DNA from: Dehalococcoidia bacterium | GTDB taxonomy: Bacteria > Chloroflexota > Dehalococcoidia > Lucifugimonadales > GCA-2712585 | DNA: 64,000 nucleotides | Assembly (NCBI GenBank): GCA_965208725.1 | Contig: CBDBPI010000001.1 | Span: 668,687-732,686, forward strand | Direction: 5' to 3' | Shown here: in pieces, positions 29,721-38,638 of the stretch | Layout: every line of letters starts with the position of its first letter | How positions within the stretch are numbered: position 1 is the stretch's first letter | Translations under genes and position numbers: made by a program | Notes under the pieces: generated by a model | The model's database searches: none | Told to the model about the DNA's origin: nothing | The model's input: the letters and a program-made list of their open reading frames with translations, nothing else

Positions 29721-30812
29721 TCATTCCAGGCTCTGCAAGTAGGCCACCAGGGCCTCGATGTCGCTTTCGGAAAGGGCCATGTCCGGGTCATTGAAGGCGT
29801 CGGCCAGGCGGGCCATGCGGTTGCCGGGCTTGACGCCCTCGGGGTCTCTGAGCCAGGCGGCGAGATTTTCGTCGGTGTTGTCAAACATGGAACCGGCGAA
29901 GGAGCCGCGGCTGGCGAAGTGGGCGAGGTTAGGGGCGTGGACCAGGTTTCCGCCTGAGATGAAGGAAGCAGTCCTGGAATCCCGCATGGCGGCGGAATCC
30001 GGCCCCGCGACGGTGTGGCACGTTATGCAGCCCTTGGTGTTGAAGACCAGGGAGCCTTCGGCCGCGAGGCCTTCGGTGGCAAATCTGGCCGGGGTCTGCT
30101 GTCCGGCCACCCACCGGAGGAACTCGTCCTCCTCCTGGGCTACGACGCGGAACTTCATGAAGGCGTGGGCTATGCCGCAGAACTCGGCGCACTGGCCGTA
30201 GTAGAGTCCCGGCTCGGAAGCGTTGAACCAGGTGTTGTTGGTGACGTTGGGGATAATGTCCATCTTGCCGGAGAGCTTGGGCACCCAGAAGCTGTGGATC
30301 ACGTCGACCGAGTCCACCGTGAAGGCCACGTCCTTACCGACGGGGACGTTGACTTCGTTGGCGGTGGTGACGTTGTACTTGGGATAGTAGAACTCGAACC
30401 ACCACTGGTGGGCGATGACTTCCACCTGCAGGGGATCGTCCTGACTGGGGGACTCAAGCTCGAAGAGGGTCTGGACGGTCATCACGGCGAGGGCTACGAG
30501 AAGCAGGGACGGTGCGACAGTCCAGGCGATTTCCAACTTGCGGTTGCCGTGGGTCTGGACGGGCAGGGCGGTCCCGCTCTTTTCGCGGAAGCGGAAGAGG
30601 GTGAAGAGGAGGGCGCCAACGACTACGATGAAGATGCCTAAGGAGGCCCAGAAAAGTATCCAGAAGAGGTTGAGCTGGTTCTTGGCTACAGGGCCTGCGG
30701 CTTCAAAGGTGGACTGGGGATGTTCGGGGGTACAGGCAATAAGGAGGGTAACCAGAGAAAGCAAGCCGAGGACGAGGATCCAGCGGCCGGATAATAGCCT
30801 CTTGGGCATCAT
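29721..30812 (-). CDS. ctaC: cytochrome c oxidase subunit II with C-terminal cytochrome c domain (caa3 type)
   Basis: 363 aa. It has a signal/TMS N-terminus, CuA site HSFWVPKL...CAEFCGIAHAFM, then a CITCH heme c motif. Confidence 0.9.
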   Translation of the reverse strand: MMPKRLLSGRWILVLGLLSLVTLLIACTPEHPQSTFEAAGPVAKNQLNLFWILFWASLGIFIVVVGALLFTLFRFREKSGTALPVQTHGNRKLEIAWTVAPSLLLVALAVMTVQTLFELESPSQDDPLQVEVIAHQWWFEFYYPKYNVTTANEVNVPVGKDVAFTVDSVDVIHSFWVPKLSGKMDIIPNVTNNTWFNASEPGLYYGQCAEFCGIAHAFMKFRVVAQEEDEFLRWVAGQQTPARFATEGLAAEGSLVFNTKGCITCHTVAGPDSAAMRDSRTASFISGGNLVHAPNLAHFASRGSFAGSMFDNTDENLAAWLRDPEGVKPGNRMARLADAFNDPDMALSESDIEALVAYLQSLE

Positions 30813-30876
30813 TATCTGCTATCTATCTTCAATAGGGGTTGGGGCTGAAATTCGTGTGTAAAAAATTTCACTAACT

Positions 30877-30905
30877 ACTGTACCAACAGCCCATGTCTTA
30901 GTCAA
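30877..30905 (-). promoter_or_regulatory. sigma70-like promoter (TTGACT-N17-TACAGT) for ctaC
   Basis: The minus strand carries TTGACT at 30905..30900 and TACAGT at 30882..30877, downstream of the protease terminator hairpin. Confidence 0.45.
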
Positions 30906-30928
30906 TAAGGGAAGGGGGGATAATAGTG

Positions 30929-30955
30929 GGGGCGGCTCCGTGGTGGAGCCGCCCC
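30929..30955 (-). terminator. GC-rich hairpin (11-bp stem, 5-nt loop) 30 nt after the protease stop
   Basis: GGGGCGGCTCC-gtggt-GGAGCCGCCCC. On the minus strand it is followed by CACTATTATCC, which is only a weak T tract. Confidence 0.5.
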
Positions 30956-30987
30956 TCTTCATTGATGCGGATGGATGTTGTAGGAGT

Positions 30988-33228
30988 TTAGCCGTTTTCT
31001 TCCACCCACCGAGTCTGCCTGCGGTTGCAGGGGGAGGAGAAACGCTCCTGCTCGTACTCAACGATGAAAGTTATCGGAGCCTCTCTAGTACGGCCAGTGT
31101 CTGTCCAACTGCCCCAGGTTTCGGTGACGGTGTCGTAATCGAACTCCGTGCCTTTGGTTGTGATCGACTGGAACTTGGTGCCGCCACACTGGTTGGTGCT
31201 CTTTTGGCGCTGAGACCGGGTCCAAGTGCGCTCCTTTCTCTGCTTGCACACACCCGAGATCAGCCCGGGTGAGCCAACGTTGGTCCAGGACCCGTAGGCT
31301 GTGTTGGGCGTTCCGACATTTTCCCAATCCCCCCATTCCAAGGGTTCGCCGGCTGCGGTGGACCTGGTGTGGCGGGCGTGCCCGTTTGAGCACTCCTCCA
31401 CCTTCTCCCTGTTCGGCCCGCATCCATCGTACCTGTCGAAGGTCCATACATGGGTAGGCGGAGGCGGAGTTGGGGTGGGAGTCGGGGCGGGCGACGACGT
31501 GACCAACGATGCGACTGTGCTCCAGGGGCCTGCGCCGGCATTATTCTTGGCCCTCACCCGGTAGTAGTGCCGAGTGTTGGTCTTCAGGTTGCTAACCGTA
31601 TGCTTCAGGCCCGTTGTGGAGTAGCTGGCATAGCCAATTTCTTCGCCCTCGTCGATTGTCCCAAGCTGCATGTCGTAGCCGGTGACCCCGGACACCGCGT
31701 CCCAGCTGACGGTCACGCTGTTAGCCGTTGCCGTTGCTGTCACGTTGGCGGGCGCAACGGTGGGCTTAGACGGTGTTGGGGTGGGCGGGGGAGAGGGAGG
31801 CGTCGGGTCTGGAGACGGTGGCGGCGCCGGGGTAGGGGGCGGGGTGGGGACGCCGACCACGCCACCCCGTATGAGCTTGGTTGCAGAGTGGGACTCGCCC
31901 ATTTCATCAGTGACGGTGAGCTTGACTTTGGCGCTACTCAATACGGTGAGATGGGCTTTCGCACTTGTGCGCTTGGTCAGAACTCCGCTACCACTGACGA
32001 TCTCCCACTTGTACTTGAGTTTGCCGCCGTCGGGATCCTTCGATCCCGTGCCGTCCAGGGTTGCCATGGTGTGAAACATGGTTCGGGTGAGAGTCGCTGT
32101 AATCTTCGCCACCGGCGGGGTGTTGACTTTGACGGTGACGGAGGCGGCGGTCTTGGCTCCGTTGCCATCGGTGACGATGAGACGAAACTGCAACTCAATT
32201 GCATGATTAGGAGCCTGGAATCTGGCAGTCGCCTGGTCTGCATTGGTGATTGTCAGCCTTTGAATCGGTCCCGCAGGATCATCAGCGTCTTCGTATACTT
32301 CCTCCCATTGATACGACAGCGTGGTATCACCATCTATGTTGCTTCTGCTGCCTGCGGCACGAAGGTACACGGTCTCCCTGGGACGAACCTCCTGAACGGG
32401 AGCGAAGGTTAAGGCCCCTTCGTCCCGCTCCACCTGGAATGCCCCGGCCACAGCGGTGGGGGCGGGGAGGCCAAAGGTGATGCCTAGCTCGTCTTCAATT
32501 ACGCTCGCCTTTAGTACATACACCTTCCTCCCCGGATCTGAATTTAGAGATCCCAGATGGATTCCGACCATTCGGTAGTTGCCTAGCTCGTCCTTGACCA
32601 CATAGGGTGCACCCGAGTCTCCACCTGAACTGGGATAATCGGAACGAACCACCAGCAATGTTTGACGGAACAGACTTCGCTGGCCTCGCACGAACCGAGC
32701 TGTAGCTACGGTCGAGTCTACGGTTCCCCATCCTTCGCCGGAGACCGCGCCTACCGTGAAAAGACGATCATGCTGCTTTGCATCAACGCGGCCGGCCACA
32801 ATTGGCCTAGATGTGTGGTTTGGATGATCGTGCAACTGGAATTTGATGTCCTGCTCACGCACATTGTCGCTGATCAGCAGGGCGACAGCGTCAAGAGGAT
32901 TCTTGGGTTCGTCATCCGGGTAGGGAGCCGGTAAGATCTGTCTCCAACTCTTCTTCACTACCCCGTCAAGCGTTTCAGTGTAGAGTTGTCCTATCTTATC
33001 GGCCTCGTCGGTACCGCCTTCGTACAGCCACTCATTTCCCTCAAGGTCCCATCCGCTCGTGCTCGTGCTGAGGACGTGCTGGCATGTTACGAGGATTTTC
33101 TTCCCATCCGAATTGCGCCTTGCAATTCCTGACAATGTTCCTCGCTCATCTCCTCCCGTAGACGGCATTATGGCGATGCCGGCCATAAGAGGTCTGTGTT
33201 GTCTGGTGATATTGTTTGCTTCTGTCAT
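30988..33228 (-). CDS. multidomain S1 (trypsin/chymotrypsin-fold) serine protease: protease - PKD - PKD - PT linker - FN3 - PT linker - Trp/Cys/Arg-rich C-terminal domain
   Basis: 746 aa. Catalytic triad candidates are TCQHV, DAVALL and GGDSGAP. Two PKD-like segments (LSYQWEEV...LIVTDGNG; DGTGSKDPDGGKLKYKWE...LTVTDEMG). FN3 (VTVSWDAVSGVTGYDMQ...YYRVRAKNNAGAGPWS). The tail has three WG(D/S)W(E/T)xxG motifs. AGGAGGA RBS. No signal peptide seen. Confidence 0.8.
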   Translation of the reverse strand: MTEANNITRQHRPLMAGIAIMPSTGGDERGTLSGIARRNSDGKKILVTCQHVLSTSTSGWDLEGNEWLYEGGTDEADKIGQLYTETLDGVVKKSWRQILPAPYPDDEPKNPLDAVALLISDNVREQDIKFQLHDHPNHTSRPIVAGRVDAKQHDRLFTVGAVSGEGWGTVDSTVATARFVRGQRSLFRQTLLVVRSDYPSSGGDSGAPYVVKDELGNYRMVGIHLGSLNSDPGRKVYVLKASVIEDELGITFGLPAPTAVAGAFQVERDEGALTFAPVQEVRPRETVYLRAAGSRSNIDGDTTLSYQWEEVYEDADDPAGPIQRLTITNADQATARFQAPNHAIELQFRLIVTDGNGAKTAASVTVKVNTPPVAKITATLTRTMFHTMATLDGTGSKDPDGGKLKYKWEIVSGSGVLTKRTSAKAHLTVLSSAKVKLTVTDEMGESHSATKLIRGGVVGVPTPPPTPAPPPSPDPTPPSPPPTPTPSKPTVAPANVTATATANSVTVSWDAVSGVTGYDMQLGTIDEGEEIGYASYSTTGLKHTVSNLKTNTRHYYRVRAKNNAGAGPWSTVASLVTSSPAPTPTPTPPPPTHVWTFDRYDGCGPNREKVEECSNGHARHTRSTAAGEPLEWGDWENVGTPNTAYGSWTNVGSPGLISGVCKQRKERTWTRSQRQKSTNQCGGTKFQSITTKGTEFDYDTVTETWGSWTDTGRTREAPITFIVEYEQERFSSPCNRRQTRWVEENG

Positions 33229-33244
33229 GAATTTCTCCTCCTAG

Positions 33245-33766
33245 CTAGTTTTCTGTTTCTGGTTCCTGGTAATCGCGAATGATTCCCTCCATTGATGGCA
33301 GGTTAGTGAGGATGTGCACCGGCACTCCCATGAAACAGTGGGGAATCCGGTTCTCCGTCTGCACTTGGCTCAACTGAGCGTCAGTGCCAAAATATGCGAT
33401 CCTGATAATCACCTCGTCATCCCACGAACGAACCACATCCCCAAGGGCCCGGCCCTTTATCCGGTACGCATCGACGCTGAACCATGGCGGGCCGCCTTCC
33501 CTGTCCAATCTAGGAATGACGTGCTCTTCCAAGACCATCTCTGCATACGGCACTCTCTCTTCATAGGGCAACGCAGACGGGTTTTCCATACCAGGATCTT
33601 CGTTAATGTCGTTGGGGCAGGGTTCTTGCGGCATGATCCGTTTGTAAACGGGCACATTACTCTCGTAAATGGGGGCCTCACCGTTGCCGCAGGCGGCTGT
33701 CAGCCAGAGGGCGACGGCTGCGATGAAGAGGGCGAGGGCTATTGTTTGCCAGTTGGTTGTTTTCAT
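33245..33766 (-). CDS. cassette lipoprotein 1 (conserved signal peptide, unique mature domain)
   Basis: MKTTNWQTIALALFIAAVALWLTAACGNG.... The ATG at 33766 lies 8 nt after AGGAGG (the ORF track adds GTG-Thr-Pro). The stop is 16 nt before the protease start. Confidence 0.7.
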   Translation of the reverse strand: MKTTNWQTIALALFIAAVALWLTAACGNGEAPIYESNVPVYKRIMPQEPCPNDINEDPGMENPSALPYEERVPYAEMVLEEHVIPRLDREGGPPWFSVDAYRIKGRALGDVVRSWDDEVIIRIAYFGTDAQLSQVQTENRIPHCFMGVPVHILTNLPSMEGIIRDYQEPETEN

Positions 33767-33801
33767 GGGTGTCACCTCCTTTTGTTGGCGGGTTTGTTGA
33801 G
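33744..33801 (-). repeat. 58-nt perfect repeat core, copy 1 (start codon, RBS and leader of lipoprotein 1)
   Basis: gtttgccagttggttgttttcatgggtgtcacctccttttgttggcgggtttgttgag is identical at 34646..34703 and 35601..35658. Flanking similarity extends to ~170 nt. Confidence 0.9.
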
Positions 33802-33825
33802 TTTCTCGTCGCCCATCGGTGATGG

Positions 33826-33855
33826 ATGATAGTACATGTATTCGCTGTATGTCAA
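33826..33855 (-). promoter_or_regulatory. promoter of lipoprotein 1 (TTGACA-N18-TATCAT)
   Basis: The minus strand carries TTGACA at 33855..33850 and TATCAT at 33831..33826. The same arrangement is conserved in all three cassettes. Confidence 0.5.
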
Positions 33856-33976
33856 GACCAAATGTGTCACTTCGGGGAACGGGGTGGGTCCTTCGTCCTT
33901 CGACAGGCTCAGGATGAACTCAGGATGAGCGGGGGATAATGGATTGGGGAATAGTGCTGATGGGAGGAGGTGTTGG

Positions 33977-34111
33977 TTAGCGGGTGGAGTGGGCCAGGTC
34001 CGACTTGCGGCGGGCAATGGCGCCCAGGGTGCCGCGATGCTCTTCTCCGTCGAACGGCATGATGGCTATGCCAGCCCTAAGGGGTCTGTGCCTTTCGTGT
34101 CTATGAGTCAT
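33977..34111 (-). pseudogene. short ORF sA (44 aa): 5-prime stub homologous to the protease N-terminus
   Basis: MTHRHERHRPLRAGIAIMPFDGEEHRGTLGAIARRKSDLAHSTR*. An AAGGAGA RBS lies 6 nt upstream. It aligns with protease residues ~10-50 and is below the ORF-track size cut-off. It could instead be a real small protein. Confidence 0.55.
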
Positions 34112-34146
34112 TTTTTATCTCCTTGTTTTGAATTCTGTTACTTTTT

Positions 34147-34668
34147 TCAGAGAGCAGTTTCCACTTTGCGTACCCTCAAATGCACCTCGATGCCCTCGAT
34201 GCACTCCGGTATACCGTATTCATGGTGAAGTCTGCTCTGTCCTAATTTCTCGTAAACGCTAATGTGGATGGCTTGCTTATCCGTTAGCAGGCCTTTGTCA
34301 TTCTCTATATCCACGATGCTATACTGTGGGATCTGATTGTTGATATACCCATTGGAACTCCTTTCTATCTGGTCTCTGAAGTTGTCCAGTATCGCCTGGA
34401 TGCGCTCCGTTTCCGGCTTGAGACGCTCTGCCCTCCACCTAGTCGCACGATTCTTGCGGTCAGTTCGTAGAAAGTAGTAGACGTGTTCAAGACCCACAAA
34501 TTGCTGGAATTCTTTCGAGGGTTCAAGCGGCGCATCAAGACCACAGGGTGCTGAGGGTGTGATTATCTCCCGACCGGTATATTCGTGTGCACATGCTGCG
34601 GCCAGCCAGAGAGCGAGGGCTGCTATGAAGAGCGTGAGGGCTTTCGTTTGCCAGTTGGTTGTTTTCAT
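34147..34668 (-). CDS. cassette lipoprotein 2
   Basis: MKTTNWQTKALTLFIAALALWLAAACAHE.... Same RBS, leader and promoter as cassettes 1 and 3. The mature domain is barely alignable to the others. Confidence 0.7.
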   Translation of the reverse strand: MKTTNWQTKALTLFIAALALWLAAACAHEYTGREIITPSAPCGLDAPLEPSKEFQQFVGLEHVYYFLRTDRKNRATRWRAERLKPETERIQAILDNFRDQIERSSNGYINNQIPQYSIVDIENDKGLLTDKQAIHISVYEKLGQSRLHHEYGIPECIEGIEVHLRVRKVETAL

Positions 34669-34703
34669 GGGTGTCACCTCCTTTTGTTGGCGGGTTTGTT
34701 GAG
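34646..34703 (-). repeat. 58-nt perfect repeat core, copy 2
   Basis: Identical to 33744..33801 and 35601..35658. Confidence 0.9.
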
Positions 34704-34727
34704 CTTCTCGTCGCTCTTCAGAGACAG

Positions 34728-34757
34728 ATGATAGTATATGTGTTCGTTGAATGTCAA
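34728..34757 (-). promoter_or_regulatory. promoter of lipoprotein 2 (TTGACA-N18-TATCAT)
   Basis: The minus strand carries TTGACA at 34757..34752 and TATCAT at 34733..34728. Confidence 0.5.
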
Positions 34758-34863
34758 GGACGGATGTGTCACTCTTGTGTAGGGTCAGGGGAAATAAGGT
34801 CGGAAGAGGCGGGGAGGGTGATGATGGGTGTTGGGGGATGTTGTTGAGGGGAGGGGAAGTGGG

Positions 34864-35004
34864 TTAGCGGGTGGAGTGGGCCAGGTCCGAATTGCGCCTG
34901 GCAATGGCGCCGAGGGTGCCGCGATGTTCTTCACCGTTCGGCCTTTCGGCTACTATCCTGAGGCCTGCTGTGATCGTGTCGTGATGTTCATTCGGTTTTA
35001 CCAT
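34864..35004 (-). pseudogene. short ORF sB (46 aa): second 5-prime stub homologous to the protease N-terminus
   Basis: MVKPNEHHDTITAGLRIVAERPNGEEHRGTLGAIARRNSDLAHSTR*. AGGAGGA RBS. It ends in the same LAHSTR-stop tail as sA. Confidence 0.55.
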
Positions 35005-35086
35005 AACTCCTCCTAATTTCCTAAATGTGTGGTTTGTTGTTCAATTAACCTTGGTATGCGACCAGAAAATTACCGCCGCTCAACTC

Positions 35087-35623
35087 TCATTCCTCGCTCC
35101 AGCGAGGAGGCACCTGATACTCCTGGGGAAACATAGCGGTCGTATACTTTGCAGCGAGAACGGGATACCCATCCAGGCAGCCCGGCAGCCAGCGATATAA
35201 GTCTTCTCTCCTACCACTCCAGGTATAATCGATGTAGGCAATGACCCCATGGTTCACGGACCACTGTTCCATGTTGCCTGTGTCCTCAGCACGAAGAGAT
35301 AGCCTATTAACAGCAACATAAGCGAATTTGGGTATCGCCCTAAATCGCTCCTCATGTTCCAGGACCACTTTAGCGGCCTCGACCGCATCTCTGTCCCTAT
35401 AGGCTCGCATGTCCAACCACCAATCGGTGTCGACGACGGAAGCAGTAAACGGCGGAGAAGGCGACTCGATGATGGCCAGCGCGCCGAAATCAAAATCGTC
35501 AACACATGGCTCCAGGCCCAATATGTCCTCATAGGAAGGCTTCCCGCAAGCTGCGGTCAGCCAGAGGGCAACTACTGCTATGAAGAGCGTGAGGGCTTTG
35601 GTTTGCCAGTTGGTTGTTTTCAT
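35087..35623 (-). CDS. cassette lipoprotein 3
   Basis: MKTTNWQTKALTLFIAVVALWLTAACGKP.... The ATG at 35623 follows AGGAGG. The longer ORF-track version (to 35716) runs through the promoter. Confidence 0.7.
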   Translation of the reverse strand: MKTTNWQTKALTLFIAVVALWLTAACGKPSYEDILGLEPCVDDFDFGALAIIESPSPPFTASVVDTDWWLDMRAYRDRDAVEAAKVVLEHEERFRAIPKFAYVAVNRLSLRAEDTGNMEQWSVNHGVIAYIDYTWSGRREDLYRWLPGCLDGYPVLAAKYTTAMFPQEYQVPPRWSEE

Positions 35624-35658
35624 GGGTGTCACCTCCTTTTGTTGGCGGGTTTGTTGAG
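35601..35658 (-). repeat. 58-nt perfect repeat core, copy 3
   Basis: Identical to 33744..33801 and 34646..34703. Confidence 0.9.
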
Positions 35659-35682
35659 CTTCTGTTCGCCCTTCAGAGATAG

Positions 35683-35711
35683 ATGATAGTATATGTGTTC
35701 GTGGCTGTCTA
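35683..35711 (-). promoter_or_regulatory. promoter of lipoprotein 3 (TAGACA-N17-TATCAT)
   Basis: The minus strand carries TAGACA at 35711..35706 and TATCAT at 35688..35683. Confidence 0.45.
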
Positions 35712-35798
35712 GACAAATGTCTTGCTTTGGGAAAAGAGGACTGGGGGAAGGGACAGAGTCACGCCTTCGATACGACAGCAAAGGCTGTGCGATAGTGG

Positions 35799-36731
35799 CT
35801 ATGCGCTTCTGTCGGCTATCCTCGCCAGGTGCTTGCGTCGCGCCTCTTCCATCTGCTGAAGCTGCTTGGCCCGTCGCTCTTCCTGCTCCAGCCATGTGAA
35901 GAAGAGGAGGGCGAGGCCGGTGAAGTACATCATCGTGCCCGGAATCCACATCAGCACTCCGCCAAGCTGCTGGTCAAGCTCTCCATCGATACCCCAGTGG
36001 TCGGGGGTGCCGTCGTAGTAGGAGTAGACGGGACCCTGGGCGAAGGTGAGGATGGCCCCGAGGATGATGTTCTGGAAGAGGGCGAGGAAGAGGTAGAGAA
36101 AGCGCAGGGGGTGGGGCATGCGGGAGCGCACCGGCGCGGGGCCGATGACGGGCCACCAGAAGATGAGGGCCGCGCCGAACATGGTCAGGTGCTCCAGCAC
36201 GTGGACGCCCTCGGAGGAGAGGGCGGCGTTGTAGGGCGCGGGGGTATGCCAGACCCAGATGGTGACGACGAATATCAGCCAGGCGATTACCGGGACGGTG
36301 ACGCCCTGGATGGCAAGCCGGAGGACCCCGGCGCTGTTCAGCGTTTCGCCGATGCTCCTTCGGACGCCCCTGGGAAAGGCCCACAGGATGCGGGACATGG
36401 GGTCGGCCAGCTGCAGAAGGGGCGGAGCTATCATCATCAGCAGGAGGTGCTGGACCATGTGCATGAAGAAGAGGTCGCCAGCGTAGACGTCGATGGGGGA
36501 TAGGAGGGCCAACACCAGGGCGATGATGCCCGCAAGATAGAGGAGGTCGCGAGACTTTCGGGGGGGAGCATACCGGGCGCGCCGGCCCAGTCGCCAGCGT
36601 CCGACCAGGTACAGAACGGACATCAAGACGATGGGTATGACGATATAGAGGGCCGAGTCCCAGTAGGCCAGGAAGTCGGCGAAGTTACTCGCCAGGGGCA
36701 GGTGCTCGTGGCCGGTGTGGAGAAAAATCAT
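35799..36731 (-). CDS. ctaG: cytochrome c oxidase assembly factor CtaG (caa3-type, Bacillus CtaG family)
   Basis: 310-aa polytopic protein with FFMHMVQHLLLMMIAPPLL, WVWHTP and the HVLEHL motif. Confidence 0.8.
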   Translation of the reverse strand: MIFLHTGHEHLPLASNFADFLAYWDSALYIVIPIVLMSVLYLVGRWRLGRRARYAPPRKSRDLLYLAGIIALVLALLSPIDVYAGDLFFMHMVQHLLLMMIAPPLLQLADPMSRILWAFPRGVRRSIGETLNSAGVLRLAIQGVTVPVIAWLIFVVTIWVWHTPAPYNAALSSEGVHVLEHLTMFGAALIFWWPVIGPAPVRSRMPHPLRFLYLFLALFQNIILGAILTFAQGPVYSYYDGTPDHWGIDGELDQQLGGVLMWIPGTMMYFTGLALLFFTWLEQEERRAKQLQQMEEARRKHLARIADRSA

Positions 36732-36766
36732 GCTCAGCGGGGCGGGCTGATGGGGATGAGAGCGAA

Positions 36767-36803
36767 CACCCCCATCCTAACCTTCCCCCATCGAGGGGGA
36801 AGG
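36767..36803. repeat. REP-like palindromic element, copy 2 (cacccccatcctaaCCTTCCCCCatcgaGGGGGAAGG)
   Basis: Intergenic between ctaG and the 36826 gene. An outer CCCCATCC ... GGATGGGG pair (ending ~36824) extends the hairpin. Confidence 0.5.
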
Positions 36804-36825
36804 CAGAAGAACGGAAGGATGGGGC

Positions 36826-37302
36826 TCACCTGGACTTGCGACGCGCCCTCTTGCGGGACCGTTCCCGCGCCTTGCTGGTCGACTCCTTGAAACAGTAGAA
36901 GTTGTCCGAGTCCAAAATCCGCTTCATCACTTCCATGGAGATGTTCATGGGATGGGTGGGCGCGGCCCACTCTTCCGTAACGTCCCAGTGGAGGTCCCGG
37001 AGGCTGGTGGCCTTGTTGGAGTTCTTCAGCAGCAGCCTGAAGACTATCTCCTTGAGGGGCATGGCAGGGGAGATGAAGTCCTCTGCCTGGGCGCAGCAGC
37101 GGGACATGTCCCGGATCTGCTTCCTGACGGTTGGGGGCTTCTTCTCGTTCAACACCCGCTCCACACAGTTTGGGCAACGGCGGCCTAACAGCAGCGACGA
37201 CATGTCTCGCTGCTGGGCTTCCGCCATCTTCGGATCAATTACGTAATAGGCCTTGGATATATCGTGCGCGGGCCGGTCATGCTCCGCTAACTTCTGTACC
37301 AT
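36826..37302 (-). CDS. hypothetical protein (Cys-containing, basic C-terminal tail)
   Basis: 158 aa from ATG 37302 (AGGAGG 5 nt upstream, 1 nt after the moeA stop). It has CPNC...CC and ends KARERSRKRARRKSR. No family recognised. Confidence 0.5.
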   Translation of the reverse strand: MVQKLAEHDRPAHDISKAYYVIDPKMAEAQQRDMSSLLLGRRCPNCVERVLNEKKPPTVRKQIRDMSRCCAQAEDFISPAMPLKEIVFRLLLKNSNKATSLRDLHWDVTEEWAAPTHPMNISMEVMKRILDSDNFYCFKESTSKARERSRKRARRKSR

Positions 37303-37303
37303 C

Positions 37304-38638
37304 TCACCCTCCTGCCTCTTCATTCCAATCGAGCATCTTCACGTCCACAATCTGGCCGCTCTCCATGCAGGGCAGGTCTTCCGGGCAGATAGCAAGCCCG
37401 TTGGCCCGCGCCATGGAGGTCAGGATGTTGGACCCCTGGGGGCCCGTGGGCGTGGCGTAGTAGTTGCCGTTCTGCCTGGTCACCCTTACACGGGCGAAGA
37501 CACGACGGCCATCGAAGTTGATAATCGGTCCCTTGAGTTCCGCGCGGATTGTGGGCTTCGCCAAGTCGGTCCGGCCCAGCATCCGCAGGATGGCGGGACG
37601 GCCGAATTCCTCGAAGGCGACCATGGCGCTGACGGGGTTGCCCGGCAGGCCCAGATGGGGCACCAATCGACCCCCTTCGCCCTTGAGCATGCCCCAGGCC
37701 AGGGGCTTGGCGGGGCGCATCCGCACGGACCAGAAATTCACCTTGCCGCGCTCCGCCAAAACGTCCTTCACGATGTCGTAGTCACCCTTCGACACGCCGG
37801 CGGATGTGAGGAGCAGGTCCGCCGTCAGCCCCTCGTTCAGCTTCCGGTGCATGTCCTCCAGGTTGTCGCGGGCGATTCCCAGCATTTGGGGGACGCCGCC
37901 GTAGCGCTGCACGGAGGCGGCCAGGCTGTAGCTGTTGCTGTCATATATGCGACCAGGCTGGGCGGCTTCGCCAGGTTCCTGCAGCTCGTCGCCGGTGGCG
38001 AGGATGGCTATCCTGGGCCGCCGAATCACCGACACCTGCTCGATGCCGAGGGAAGCAAGGACGCCTATCTCCGAGGGTCTGAGGACGGCGCTGCGTTCGA
38101 GGACTTTTTCGCCCGCCTTCACGTCCTCGCCGGCAGGCCGGACGTGCATTCCCAAAGGCTGGTCGACGAGGATGCCGATTTCATCCATGGAGTCGCCTCG
38201 GGCCTTGCGCTCCACCTCGTCGGTCTCCTCGAAGGGGACGACGGTGTCGCAGCCTTCGGGCGTGGGCGCGCCCGTCATGATGCGCAGGGCGGTACCCGGC
38301 TCCACCGAGCGGTCCGGTATCTGGCCCGCAGCTATCAGGCCGATTACGCGCAGGACGACGGGATTTTCGGGGGAAGCGTCCTGAACGTCCTCGTGGCGGA
38401 GGGCGTAGCCGTCCATGGCGGAGTTGTCCGTCGGCGGAATGTTGAGGGGCGAAAAAACGTCCTCGGCGAGGGTCTGGCCCAAGGCATCCAGGATGGGCCT
38501 GCTCTCCGGCTCAAGAGGGCTGAAGGCGGCGATTATCCGGTCGAAGGCTTCCTCCACGCTGAGCATGTCGGCATGGTAGTGTCCCCGCCTGTGGTGGCGT
38601 CCCTCCTTGTGTCCGTGACCGTGATGGTGGTCCTTCAT
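37304..38638 (-). CDS. moeA: molybdopterin molybdotransferase MoeA with His-rich N-terminal extension
   Basis: 444 aa with SVEEAFDRI, the SAMDGYALR motif, TGAP, ATGDEL, the SGGVSKGD-like SAGVSKGDYD, and PGNPVSA. Confidence 0.88.
   Translation of the reverse strand: MKDHHHGHGHKEGRHHRRGHYHADMLSVEEAFDRIIAAFSPLEPESRPILDALGQTLAEDVFSPLNIPPTDNSAMDGYALRHEDVQDASPENPVVLRVIGLIAAGQIPDRSVEPGTALRIMTGAPTPEGCDTVVPFEETDEVERKARGDSMDEIGILVDQPLGMHVRPAGEDVKAGEKVLERSAVLRPSEIGVLASLGIEQVSVIRRPRIAILATGDELQEPGEAAQPGRIYDSNSYSLAASVQRYGGVPQMLGIARDNLEDMHRKLNEGLTADLLLTSAGVSKGDYDIVKDVLAERGKVNFWSVRMRPAKPLAWGMLKGEGGRLVPHLGLPGNPVSAMVAFEEFGRPAILRMLGRTDLAKPTIRAELKGPIINFDGRRVFARVRVTRQNGNYYATPTGPQGSNILTSMARANGLAICPEDLPCMESGQIVDVKMLDWNEEAGG

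Follow-up and report, generated by a model that had tools for sequence, protein, structure and literature searches.

A stretch of 64,000 nucleotides from a Dehalococcoidia bacterium (GenBank assembly GCA_965208725.1, contig CBDBPI010000001.1, positions 668,687 to 732,686 of the forward strand), referred to here as the window, carries an array of lipoprotein and protease genes on its minus strand at 33.0-35.8 kb, between ctaG and coxB. Read from ctaG, the array comprises lipoprotein 3, stub B, lipoprotein 2, stub A, lipoprotein 1 and a full-length protease gene, followed by coxB. The stubs are two short open reading frames (ORFs) that resemble the start of a protease gene, and their origin and possible role are the subject of this analysis. 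They are probably remnants of broken protease genes.

A tandem array between ctaG and coxB

Three tandem units make up the array, each consisting of a promoter-like site, a leader, a lipoprotein gene and either the 5' end of a protease gene or a whole one; the whole gene is kept only in the last cassette. The initial annotation had described this repeat unit (promoter, lipoprotein, protease 5' end) and had placed each stub behind its lipoprotein exactly where the full-length protease sits behind lipoprotein 1. Both descriptions are correct, and the unit recurs in other genomes. Lipoprotein and protease are separate genes in different reading frames in the window, and the mature parts of the three lipoproteins share 32-36% identity with one another. 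The features are listed below by position in the window, with lengths in amino acids (aa), and handles beginning with L or P denote relatives.

35547..35728, minus strand: promoter, 5' untranslated region (5'UTR) and signal-peptide block of unit 3, which is the unit nearest to ctaG
35087..35623, minus strand: lipoprotein 3, with lipobox LTAAC; ortholog of L007 3938-4549, which precedes a full-length protease
34864..35004, minus strand: stub B (46 aa), a chimera with an AGGAGGA ribosome-binding site
34758..34863, minus strand: C-rich, G-poor spacer 3' of stub B (C 0.52, G 0.07 overall)
34592..34773, minus strand: promoter/5'UTR/signal-peptide block of unit 2
34147..34668, minus strand: lipoprotein 2; its ortholog in the syntenic L025 (1883-2476) also precedes a stub
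33977..34111, minus strand: stub A (44 aa), with an AAGGAGA ribosome-binding site
33856..33976, minus strand: C-rich, G-poor spacer 3' of stub A, defined by composition; contains a REP-like (repetitive extragenic palindrome-like) motif and precedes the unit 1 promoter
33690..33871, minus strand: promoter/5'UTR/signal-peptide block of unit 1, with conserved copies in units 2 and 3
33245..33766, minus strand: lipoprotein 1, partner of the full-length protease; orthologs in L001, L006, L008, L020 and L021
30988..33228, minus strand: full-length type I protease (746 aa), without a signal peptide
30929..30955, minus strand: GC-rich hairpin GGGGCGGCTCC-ACCAC-GGAGCCGCCCC, 3' of the full protease and before coxB, read directly from the sequence

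Relatives of the array were located by a scan with the signal-peptide DNA, which gave nine loci in five Dehalococcoidia genome assemblies, and further ones were found among metagenome contigs of the European Nucleotide Archive (ENA) through protein searches and contig look-ups. Several of the related contigs are low-coverage (2x-11x) long-read assemblies, in which part of the frameshifts may be erroneous. Looked up by exact sequence, neither stub A nor lipoprotein 2 was on record, and a scan of JGI metagenomes with the signal-peptide DNA pattern gave six chance matches, none of them from this lipoprotein/protease family. Literature searches on the tandem array, on bacterial NAL1 homologues, the family discussed below, and on SRP109090 found nothing relevant.

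Truncated protease genes and their tails

Both stub ORFs are present with the translations, coordinates and ribosome-binding sites first reported for them, and their similarity to the N-terminus of the 746-aa protease is significant (22/32 residues, E 2e-12, for stub A and 16/34, E 2e-06, for stub B; BLASTP, single comparisons). The peptide AGIAIMPFDGEEHR is an example of a stub sequence. The catalytic histidine lies 10 residues after D41 of the window protease, as the initial annotation had placed it. Stubs A and B agree completely over their last 27 nt, also as claimed, while the identity over the last 76 nt is 89.5% rather than the earlier figure of about 92%. The 26-nt tail occurs at two places only in the window, with 0 expected by chance. 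That the tail might be a repeated element present elsewhere in the window was considered and rejected, as no further copy was found.

Homology to the protease had been thought to stop exactly after RR(N/K)SD and to give way to a foreign tail reading LAHSTR and a stop. Comparison with a second protease type (type II; L002, P0021 and P0017) overturns both points. Against this type, homology continues through SDLA(R/K)VLVTN, and LAHSTR is a frameshifted continuation of the type II sequence ..LA(R/K)VLVTN. The window's own type I protease departs from the stubs after RRNSD, whereas the type II protease does not. For example, the full-length gene of L002 reads ..GEEHRGTLGAIAKRKSDLARVLVTNVHV and that of P0021 (768 aa) reads ..HRPLRAGIAIMPFDGEEHRGTLGAIARRKSDLARVLVTAVHV, and residues 8-40 of stub A (HRPL..SDLA) are identical to full-length P0021 at 33/33 positions.

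The same continuation can be followed in the DNA. The window tail CTGGCCCACTCCACCCGC-TAACCAAC aligns with CTTGCAAGGGTC--CTCG-TAACCAAC of L002 (SDLARVLVTN), with both ends firm and the middle decayed. Because the tail aligns with the type II LVTN codons, the TAA stop of the stubs is the out-of-frame GTAACC (Val-Thr of LVTN), reached after a 2-nt insertion. Intermediates that remain in frame also exist: L011 has DGAKVLVTN (..DGAKVLVTNALPVSN and a stop), followed by the same C-rich sequence, and P0017/L023 has SDLAKVLVIN (..SDLAKVLVINLPVPH..). Other tails differ by a small indel (L005), a 12-nt deletion (L006, L008 and L010) or a 1-nt deletion (L024). The actual junction with non-protease DNA lies directly after VTN, one or two codons before the catalytic histidine. 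On these alignments, the tail is a decayed continuation of the protease; to take it for foreign sequence was a misreading that could be corrected only by comparison with other genomes.

The 5' parts of the stubs have different sources. Codons 1-7 of stub A (MTHRHER) match the start of proteases paired with lipoprotein-2-type genes, and the start MTHRHERHRP is common to stub A and to the L025 stub behind the lipoprotein 2 ortholog. Codons 8-40 are the type II protease block, after which the frameshifted LAHSTR follows. In stub B, codons 1-23 (MVKPNEHHDTITAGLRIVAERPN) come from a protease type that is full length in L007, where 20 of the first 23 residues are identical (BLASTP 23/33, E 4e-12) and where the full protease is preceded by an ortholog of lipoprotein 3. 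Codons 24-40 are the type II block GEEHRGTLGAIARRNSD, ending in the same frameshifted tail as stub A. In L006, L008, L020 and L021, the type II block follows a type I start. For instance, the first 69 nt of a stub in L006 and L008 match the window type I protease with 3 differences before the type II block begins, and in L020 the loss of 18 codons between two ..IA repeats has brought a type I start up against the tail. Each stub is thus a recombinant whose first codons go with the upstream lipoprotein and whose 3' half to two-thirds is a shared type II block.

Array growth and explanations for the stubs

At least 12 loci, drawn from Dehalococcoidia genomes and from metagenomes, have the same layout, and their cassette content differs at the same chromosomal site. 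In all related arrays, every lipoprotein gene has a stub or a protease behind it. The window is syntenic (pheST, moeA, ctaG, array) with L020, L021, L025 and L008, which differ from it in the number and order of cassettes; coxBAC follows the array in L021 and L025, and the L020 and L008 contigs end before coxB. Between moeA and ctaG, the window also has a 165-aa ORF (36826-37323, minus strand) without a Pfam match, and a 158-aa ORF is kept at the same position in L020, L021 and L025. In the lipoprotein 1 cassette, the window (33172-33872) and L020 (9489-10192), a Tara-sample contig, are 89% identical, whereas the flanking ctaG/moeA region is 79% identical (window 35807-37357, L020 7700-9247). 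As the cassette is more alike than the core genes beside it, this comparison suggests that the cassette has been exchanged between lineages.

Other joins record further rearrangement. A second junction class, after HIIxGD and past the catalytic histidine, with tail CCCCATATATCTACTTAATCTC, is common to L002 and L009, and in L002 and L006 long protease genes are cut inside the PKD domain and joined via short microhomology to the end of a stub tail. Both kinds of join read as traces of repeated duplication and deletion. The long protease genes of L006 (7183), L001, L002, L022 and L023 are interrupted by single stops or frameshifts, which could be assembly errors and not real pseudogenes.

The DNA between cassettes is most uniform at the promoter and leader. 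Units 1 and 2 have a promoter-like site with TTGACA, an 18-nt spacer and TATCAT, and unit 3 has TAGACA, a 17-nt spacer and TATCAT. A 58-nt run covering the 5'UTR and the start of the signal peptide is identical in 3/3 units, and the complete promoter/5'UTR/signal-peptide blocks share 78-86% identity over 182 nt. Across species, promoter, leader and signal-peptide DNA is better conserved than the proteins that depend on it. Among related loci, the leader GAAGAGCGACGAGAAGCTCAA(A)CAAACCCGCCAA.AAAGGAGGTGACACCC hardly varies. Further upstream, a GTGACAC(A)-N5-6-TTGACA motif, similar to a regulator or UP-type site, is found at 33826-33880, 34728-34780 and 35683-35735 (minus strand) and in all related loci.

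Directly 3' of both stub stops, about 100 nt are C-rich and G-poor. In 60-nt segments, C is about 0.5 and G 0.03-0.08 after stub A, and values of C 0.60 and G 0.02 are reached after stub B; a C-rich stretch follows the stubs in all genomes examined. Composition of this kind is typical of Rho loading sites, making the spacer after stub A a candidate Rho-type terminator or insulator before the unit 1 promoter. No intrinsic terminator was found in the spacers, RNAalifold found no conserved fold in eight stub and tail sequences (-2.9 kcal/mol, no covariation), and an Rfam scan of 30500-36500 gave only a chance lncRNA (long non-coding RNA) match (E 0.31). Derivation of the spacer from the coding DNA of the protease Pro/Thr linker had no blastn support. 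The spacer after stub A also holds a REP-like motif, GCTCATCCTGAG..CCTGAGCCTGTCGAAGGAC, which recurs in the L020, L022 and L024 joints. The REP-like motif GCTCATCCTGAGCCTGTCGAAGGAC (33895-33935, minus strand) is partly duplicated in the window, is seen again between cassettes in several genomes (L020, L022 and L024) and also stands upstream of the first cassette in L020.

Taken together, the stubs are best explained, with a probability of about 0.68, as broken, mosaic and frameshifted relics of protease genes that lie in a homogenised joint between cassettes. The array would have arisen by tandem duplication of a segment that had one end within a protease gene, which would place the full protease last, as it is in the window and in L021, L022, L023, L024 and L025. 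Later growth, shrinkage and cassette exchange would have proceeded by unequal and homologous recombination, for the most part in the long identical promoter/signal-peptide blocks and now and then in short repeats at the protease start. Stub block, decayed tail, C-rich spacer and promoter (with leader and signal peptide) would then make up a joint, about 0.4 kb long, which is homogenised within each genome and carries the stub along. The joint of L021 is a version of its own, in which both the signal peptide and the tail are different, and this argues for such homogenisation within a genome. Since their ribosome-binding sites and ATG codons are kept, the stubs probably share a transcript with the lipoprotein gene and are translated, although the product is most likely useless. 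With about 100 nt of C-rich, G-poor and unstructured RNA behind it, the early stop would favour Rho-type termination before the next promoter.

Several observations weigh against reading the stubs as relics, and the codon pattern is the strongest of them in favour of a functional peptide. In a 31-codon block compared among eight distinct stubs from different genomes, 35 synonymous and 19 non-synonymous variant codons were counted against 23 synonymous and 70 non-synonymous sites (p 6e-10); variable sites number 10, 8 and 25 at the three codon positions, the ratio of non-synonymous to synonymous change (dN/dS) is about 0.18, and pairwise proportions of synonymous (pS) and non-synonymous (pN) differences are 0.30-0.44 and 0-0.05. 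Such synonymous-biased variation would be the pattern of a translated and selected peptide. The stubs are also more like stubs of other genomes than like the full protease of their own array, so conversion from the neighbouring gene cannot explain the pattern, and type II donors elsewhere, or recent descent from them, are required. Moreover, the block was collected with a pattern that demands it intact, which under-counts decayed copies, and some frameshifts in relatives may be errors of low-coverage long-read assemblies. A micro-protein of about 40 residues, comprising strands one and two of the protease barrel and ending just short of the catalytic histidine, might act as a decoy or regulator by binding the lipoprotein N-domain or a protease; ribosome-binding sites and ATG codons that are intact, a nearly invariant amino-acid block beside DNA that decays just 3' of it, and eight stub-length ORFs in public data fit this idea. 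However, full-length type II genes with an identical block exist (P0021 and P0002), and these genes, being under constraint, could have supplied the codon pattern by descent or recombination. Other stubs are broken: L008 has an internal stop, L005 has lost its start, L009 shifts frame early and L020 has the 18-codon deletion. Their C-termini differ freely in length and sequence among genomes (LAHSTR, LP, LPEPTPSPISNIP or LAQRLP before the stop, and 61-aa versions), and the second stub class (L002 and L009) ends elsewhere, after the catalytic histidine. A functional micro-protein is therefore considered improbable.

A role in cis, with stub and tail kept as a Rho-dependent terminator that insulates cassettes or, in a variant, with stub translation stabilising the lipoprotein mRNA, is unlikely but somewhat easier to accept, and it would fit a relic origin too. 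The base composition after both stops (C 0.5-0.6, G 0.02-0.08 over about 100 nt), its recurrence in every genome examined, spacers that lack an intrinsic terminator or conserved fold, and a separate promoter for each cassette point in this direction. The argument is one from composition, though; spacer sequence and length are highly variable, and the position of the stop varies, with one L024 stub reading through into the next gene. The earlier proposal that stubs recombine with the full gene and swap the lipoprotein coupled to it holds as evolutionary history, given the mosaic stubs and the variable order and content of cassettes, but not as a working switch. Crossover within a population would find precedents in the type I/type II joins of L006, L008, L020 and L021 and in the different cassette order at the same locus. 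Yet the longest uninterrupted identity to the resident protease gene is 8 nt for stub A and 14 nt for stub B, a poor substrate for homologous recombination, and much longer identical runs lie in the promoter/signal-peptide blocks. Each event would also be an irreversible deletion of the intervening cassettes, and no inverted repeats or recombinase gene occur between ctaG and coxB. A working switch is thus very unlikely, and an invertible element was likewise rejected, as no meaningful inverted repeats were found. If unequal crossing over takes place today, the promoter/signal-peptide blocks are its most likely site, and whole cassettes would be added or removed. Lastly, stubs produced by misassembly or sequencing error in a repetitive region are hardly credible: several related contigs are indeed low-coverage long-read assemblies with obvious frameshifts in long genes, but the same architecture, junction and tails appear in independent assemblies, including complete chromosomes of metagenome-assembled genomes (MAGs) and short-read scaffolds.

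An apparently split lipoprotein-protease family

The window protease consists of a chymotrypsin-fold domain, two PKD domains, an fn3 domain and a Cys/Trp-rich C-terminal region. It also has a Pro/Thr linker, and it lacks a signal peptide despite its extracellular-type domains. The initial annotation had called it an S1 protease. The chymotrypsin-type His/Asp/Ser pattern bears this out, with H51, D113 and S205 (GDSG) invariant in a 10-sequence alignment and set in TxxHV and GDSG contexts, but the Trypsin_2 match falls short (19 bits against a cut-off of 27.6, E 0.0025). Pfam at default settings gave no trypsin-family match for the catalytic domain, NCBIfam matched the window proteins only in the PKD region, and a PDB search with the single protease sequence returned nothing relevant. 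An AlphaFold2 model of the protease domain from a 4-sequence alignment reached a predicted local distance difference test (pLDDT) score of 41 and was not used.

A profile of the protease gave a clearer, if weak, result against PDB, where chains of NAL1 ranked top (E 0.008, profile positions 24-227 of 262). The best solved-structure match is thus rice NARROW LEAF 1 (NAL1; PDB 8PMM and 8HAU), which has a chymotrypsin-fold domain after the Pfam domain NAL1_N. Aligned motifs include GTL..IA..LVTN.HV and GDSG, and protease motifs match NAL1 H234 and S385. An exhaustive profile search collected 661 representative proteins, most of which begin directly with the protease domain and lack a signal peptide.

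At the other end of the protein, the C-terminal region (30988-31300, minus strand) contains W-x-x-W repeats (WGDWENVG, YGSWTNVG and WGSWTDTG) together with cysteines, and may be a binding module or sorting signal. The end motif ..RTSHCG(D/N)TETQWV.A is conserved at the C-termini of L010, L021, L025, P0021 and P0079. In P0050, P0051 and L004 (P0004), the PKD/fn3 part is replaced by another C-terminal module, ..VVGIVHTPSGGSVGDV..VVVKG(I/V)AKTLSAG.I.IGDPV.PSG.

The lipoproteins form a family with a common C-terminal domain ending in ..PPEDRIP.C.EG.PV. Pfam NAL1_N (PF25608) matches 8/24 family members, and three double-domain members pass the cut-off (32-34 bits against 27). The window lipoproteins themselves stay below significance for NAL1_N (best lipoprotein 2, E 0.084) and are linked to it only via the family alignment and the C-terminal motif. 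Relatives in which a lipoprotein-type domain is fused to a protease (P0050, P0051, P0067 and P0079) provide a second connection. For example, P0050 consists of a lipoprotein signal peptide, N-domain and protease (hhalign probability 98.6%, E 9e-16), and the N-terminal domain of P0067 is 63% identical to the second repeat of an L002 lipoprotein (BLASTP E 5e-32). Pfam found no NAL1_N match in the N-terminal extensions of these fused relatives, and their homology is shown by hhalign and BLASTP instead. A PDB search with the lipoprotein profile returned nothing, and Foldseek found no significant match in PDB for an AlphaFold2 model of lipoprotein 1 (pLDDT 59).

Because of the NAL1_N matches in the family and the fused relatives, the lipoprotein body appears to be the detached N-terminal domain of its protease family. 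Each full cassette would then encode a split protease, made up of a lipid-anchored N-domain and a catalytic subunit. In the NAL1 oligomer, the protease domain is in contact with an N-terminal region that lies ahead of it in the chain (PMC12012508). The N-domain of the cassettes may anchor the protease, help it fold or inhibit it. The two systems agree in that members of the lipoprotein family match NAL1_N; they differ in that NAL1 is one polypeptide whereas the N-domain here is a separate lipid-anchored protein encoded upstream, and in that the window protease has PKD, fn3 and Cys/Trp-rich domains.

Other known systems share parts of this arrangement. The pro region of alpha-lytic protease, a folding catalyst and inhibitor of an S1 protease, is likewise an alpha/beta domain of about 150 residues encoded just before a chymotrypsin-fold protease, although it has no sequence similarity to the lipoproteins. 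It was the only biologically coherent entry among the Foldseek matches of lipoprotein 1, and those matches were not significant given the model quality noted above (3pro_C, E 0.56, probability 0.38; 4pro_D, E 1.2; TM scores 0.26-0.29). The vsp, vlp and vsa loci of Mycoplasma also cluster lipoprotein genes with a conserved 5'UTR and signal peptide and divergent mature parts. These loci switch by site-specific inversion or promoter slippage at one expression site, whereas the window array has no inverted repeats or recombinase and has a promoter at every gene. Ordinary duplication relics, or truncated pseudogenes, resemble the stubs in having a truncated 5' copy upstream of an intact gene, a shared breakpoint, frameshifts and varied decay. 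Unlike them, the stub block is spread over many loci and species, has been recombined onto different gene starts and shows conservation at the codon level.

Orphan modules are known from polymorphic toxin loci, such as the cdiA-CT/cdiI orphans of contact-dependent inhibition (CDI) systems and the orphan tips of Rhs. As in the window, a tandem array lies beside one full-length gene, a small partner gene is paired with a homologous fragment, recombination is mosaic and content differs between strains at one locus. The differences are that the fragments here are 5' ends with the partner upstream, whereas there they are 3' toxin tips with the immunity gene downstream, and that the window cassettes each have their own promoter. 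To our knowledge, no toxin or immunity activity has been reported for these array proteins. A speculative extension, to which only a small chance is given, is that the arrays are stores of orphan protease N-domain lipoproteins acting as surface-anchored partners or inhibitors of neighbours' type-matched proteases, with the stub-joint serving as recombination arm and insulator. Each orphan lipoprotein may, on this proposal, be specific for one protease type and have been kept after its own protease gene was lost. If this were true, the array would be the protease counterpart of orphan immunity gene islands, with cassettes exchanged between species.

In summary, the stubs matter little as scars and are useful mainly as markers of how the array is built and reshuffled in uncultured Dehalococcoidia. 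Following them led to the detached N-domain, to cassettes that are more alike between species than the core genes flanking them, and to a leader block better conserved than the proteins it precedes. The locus itself, a hypervariable array of apparently split lipoprotein-protease cassettes from an uncharacterised family, is of greater interest than the stubs. Should the orphan lipoproteins prove to be type-specific partners or inhibitors, it would represent a new kind of polymorphic surface system.

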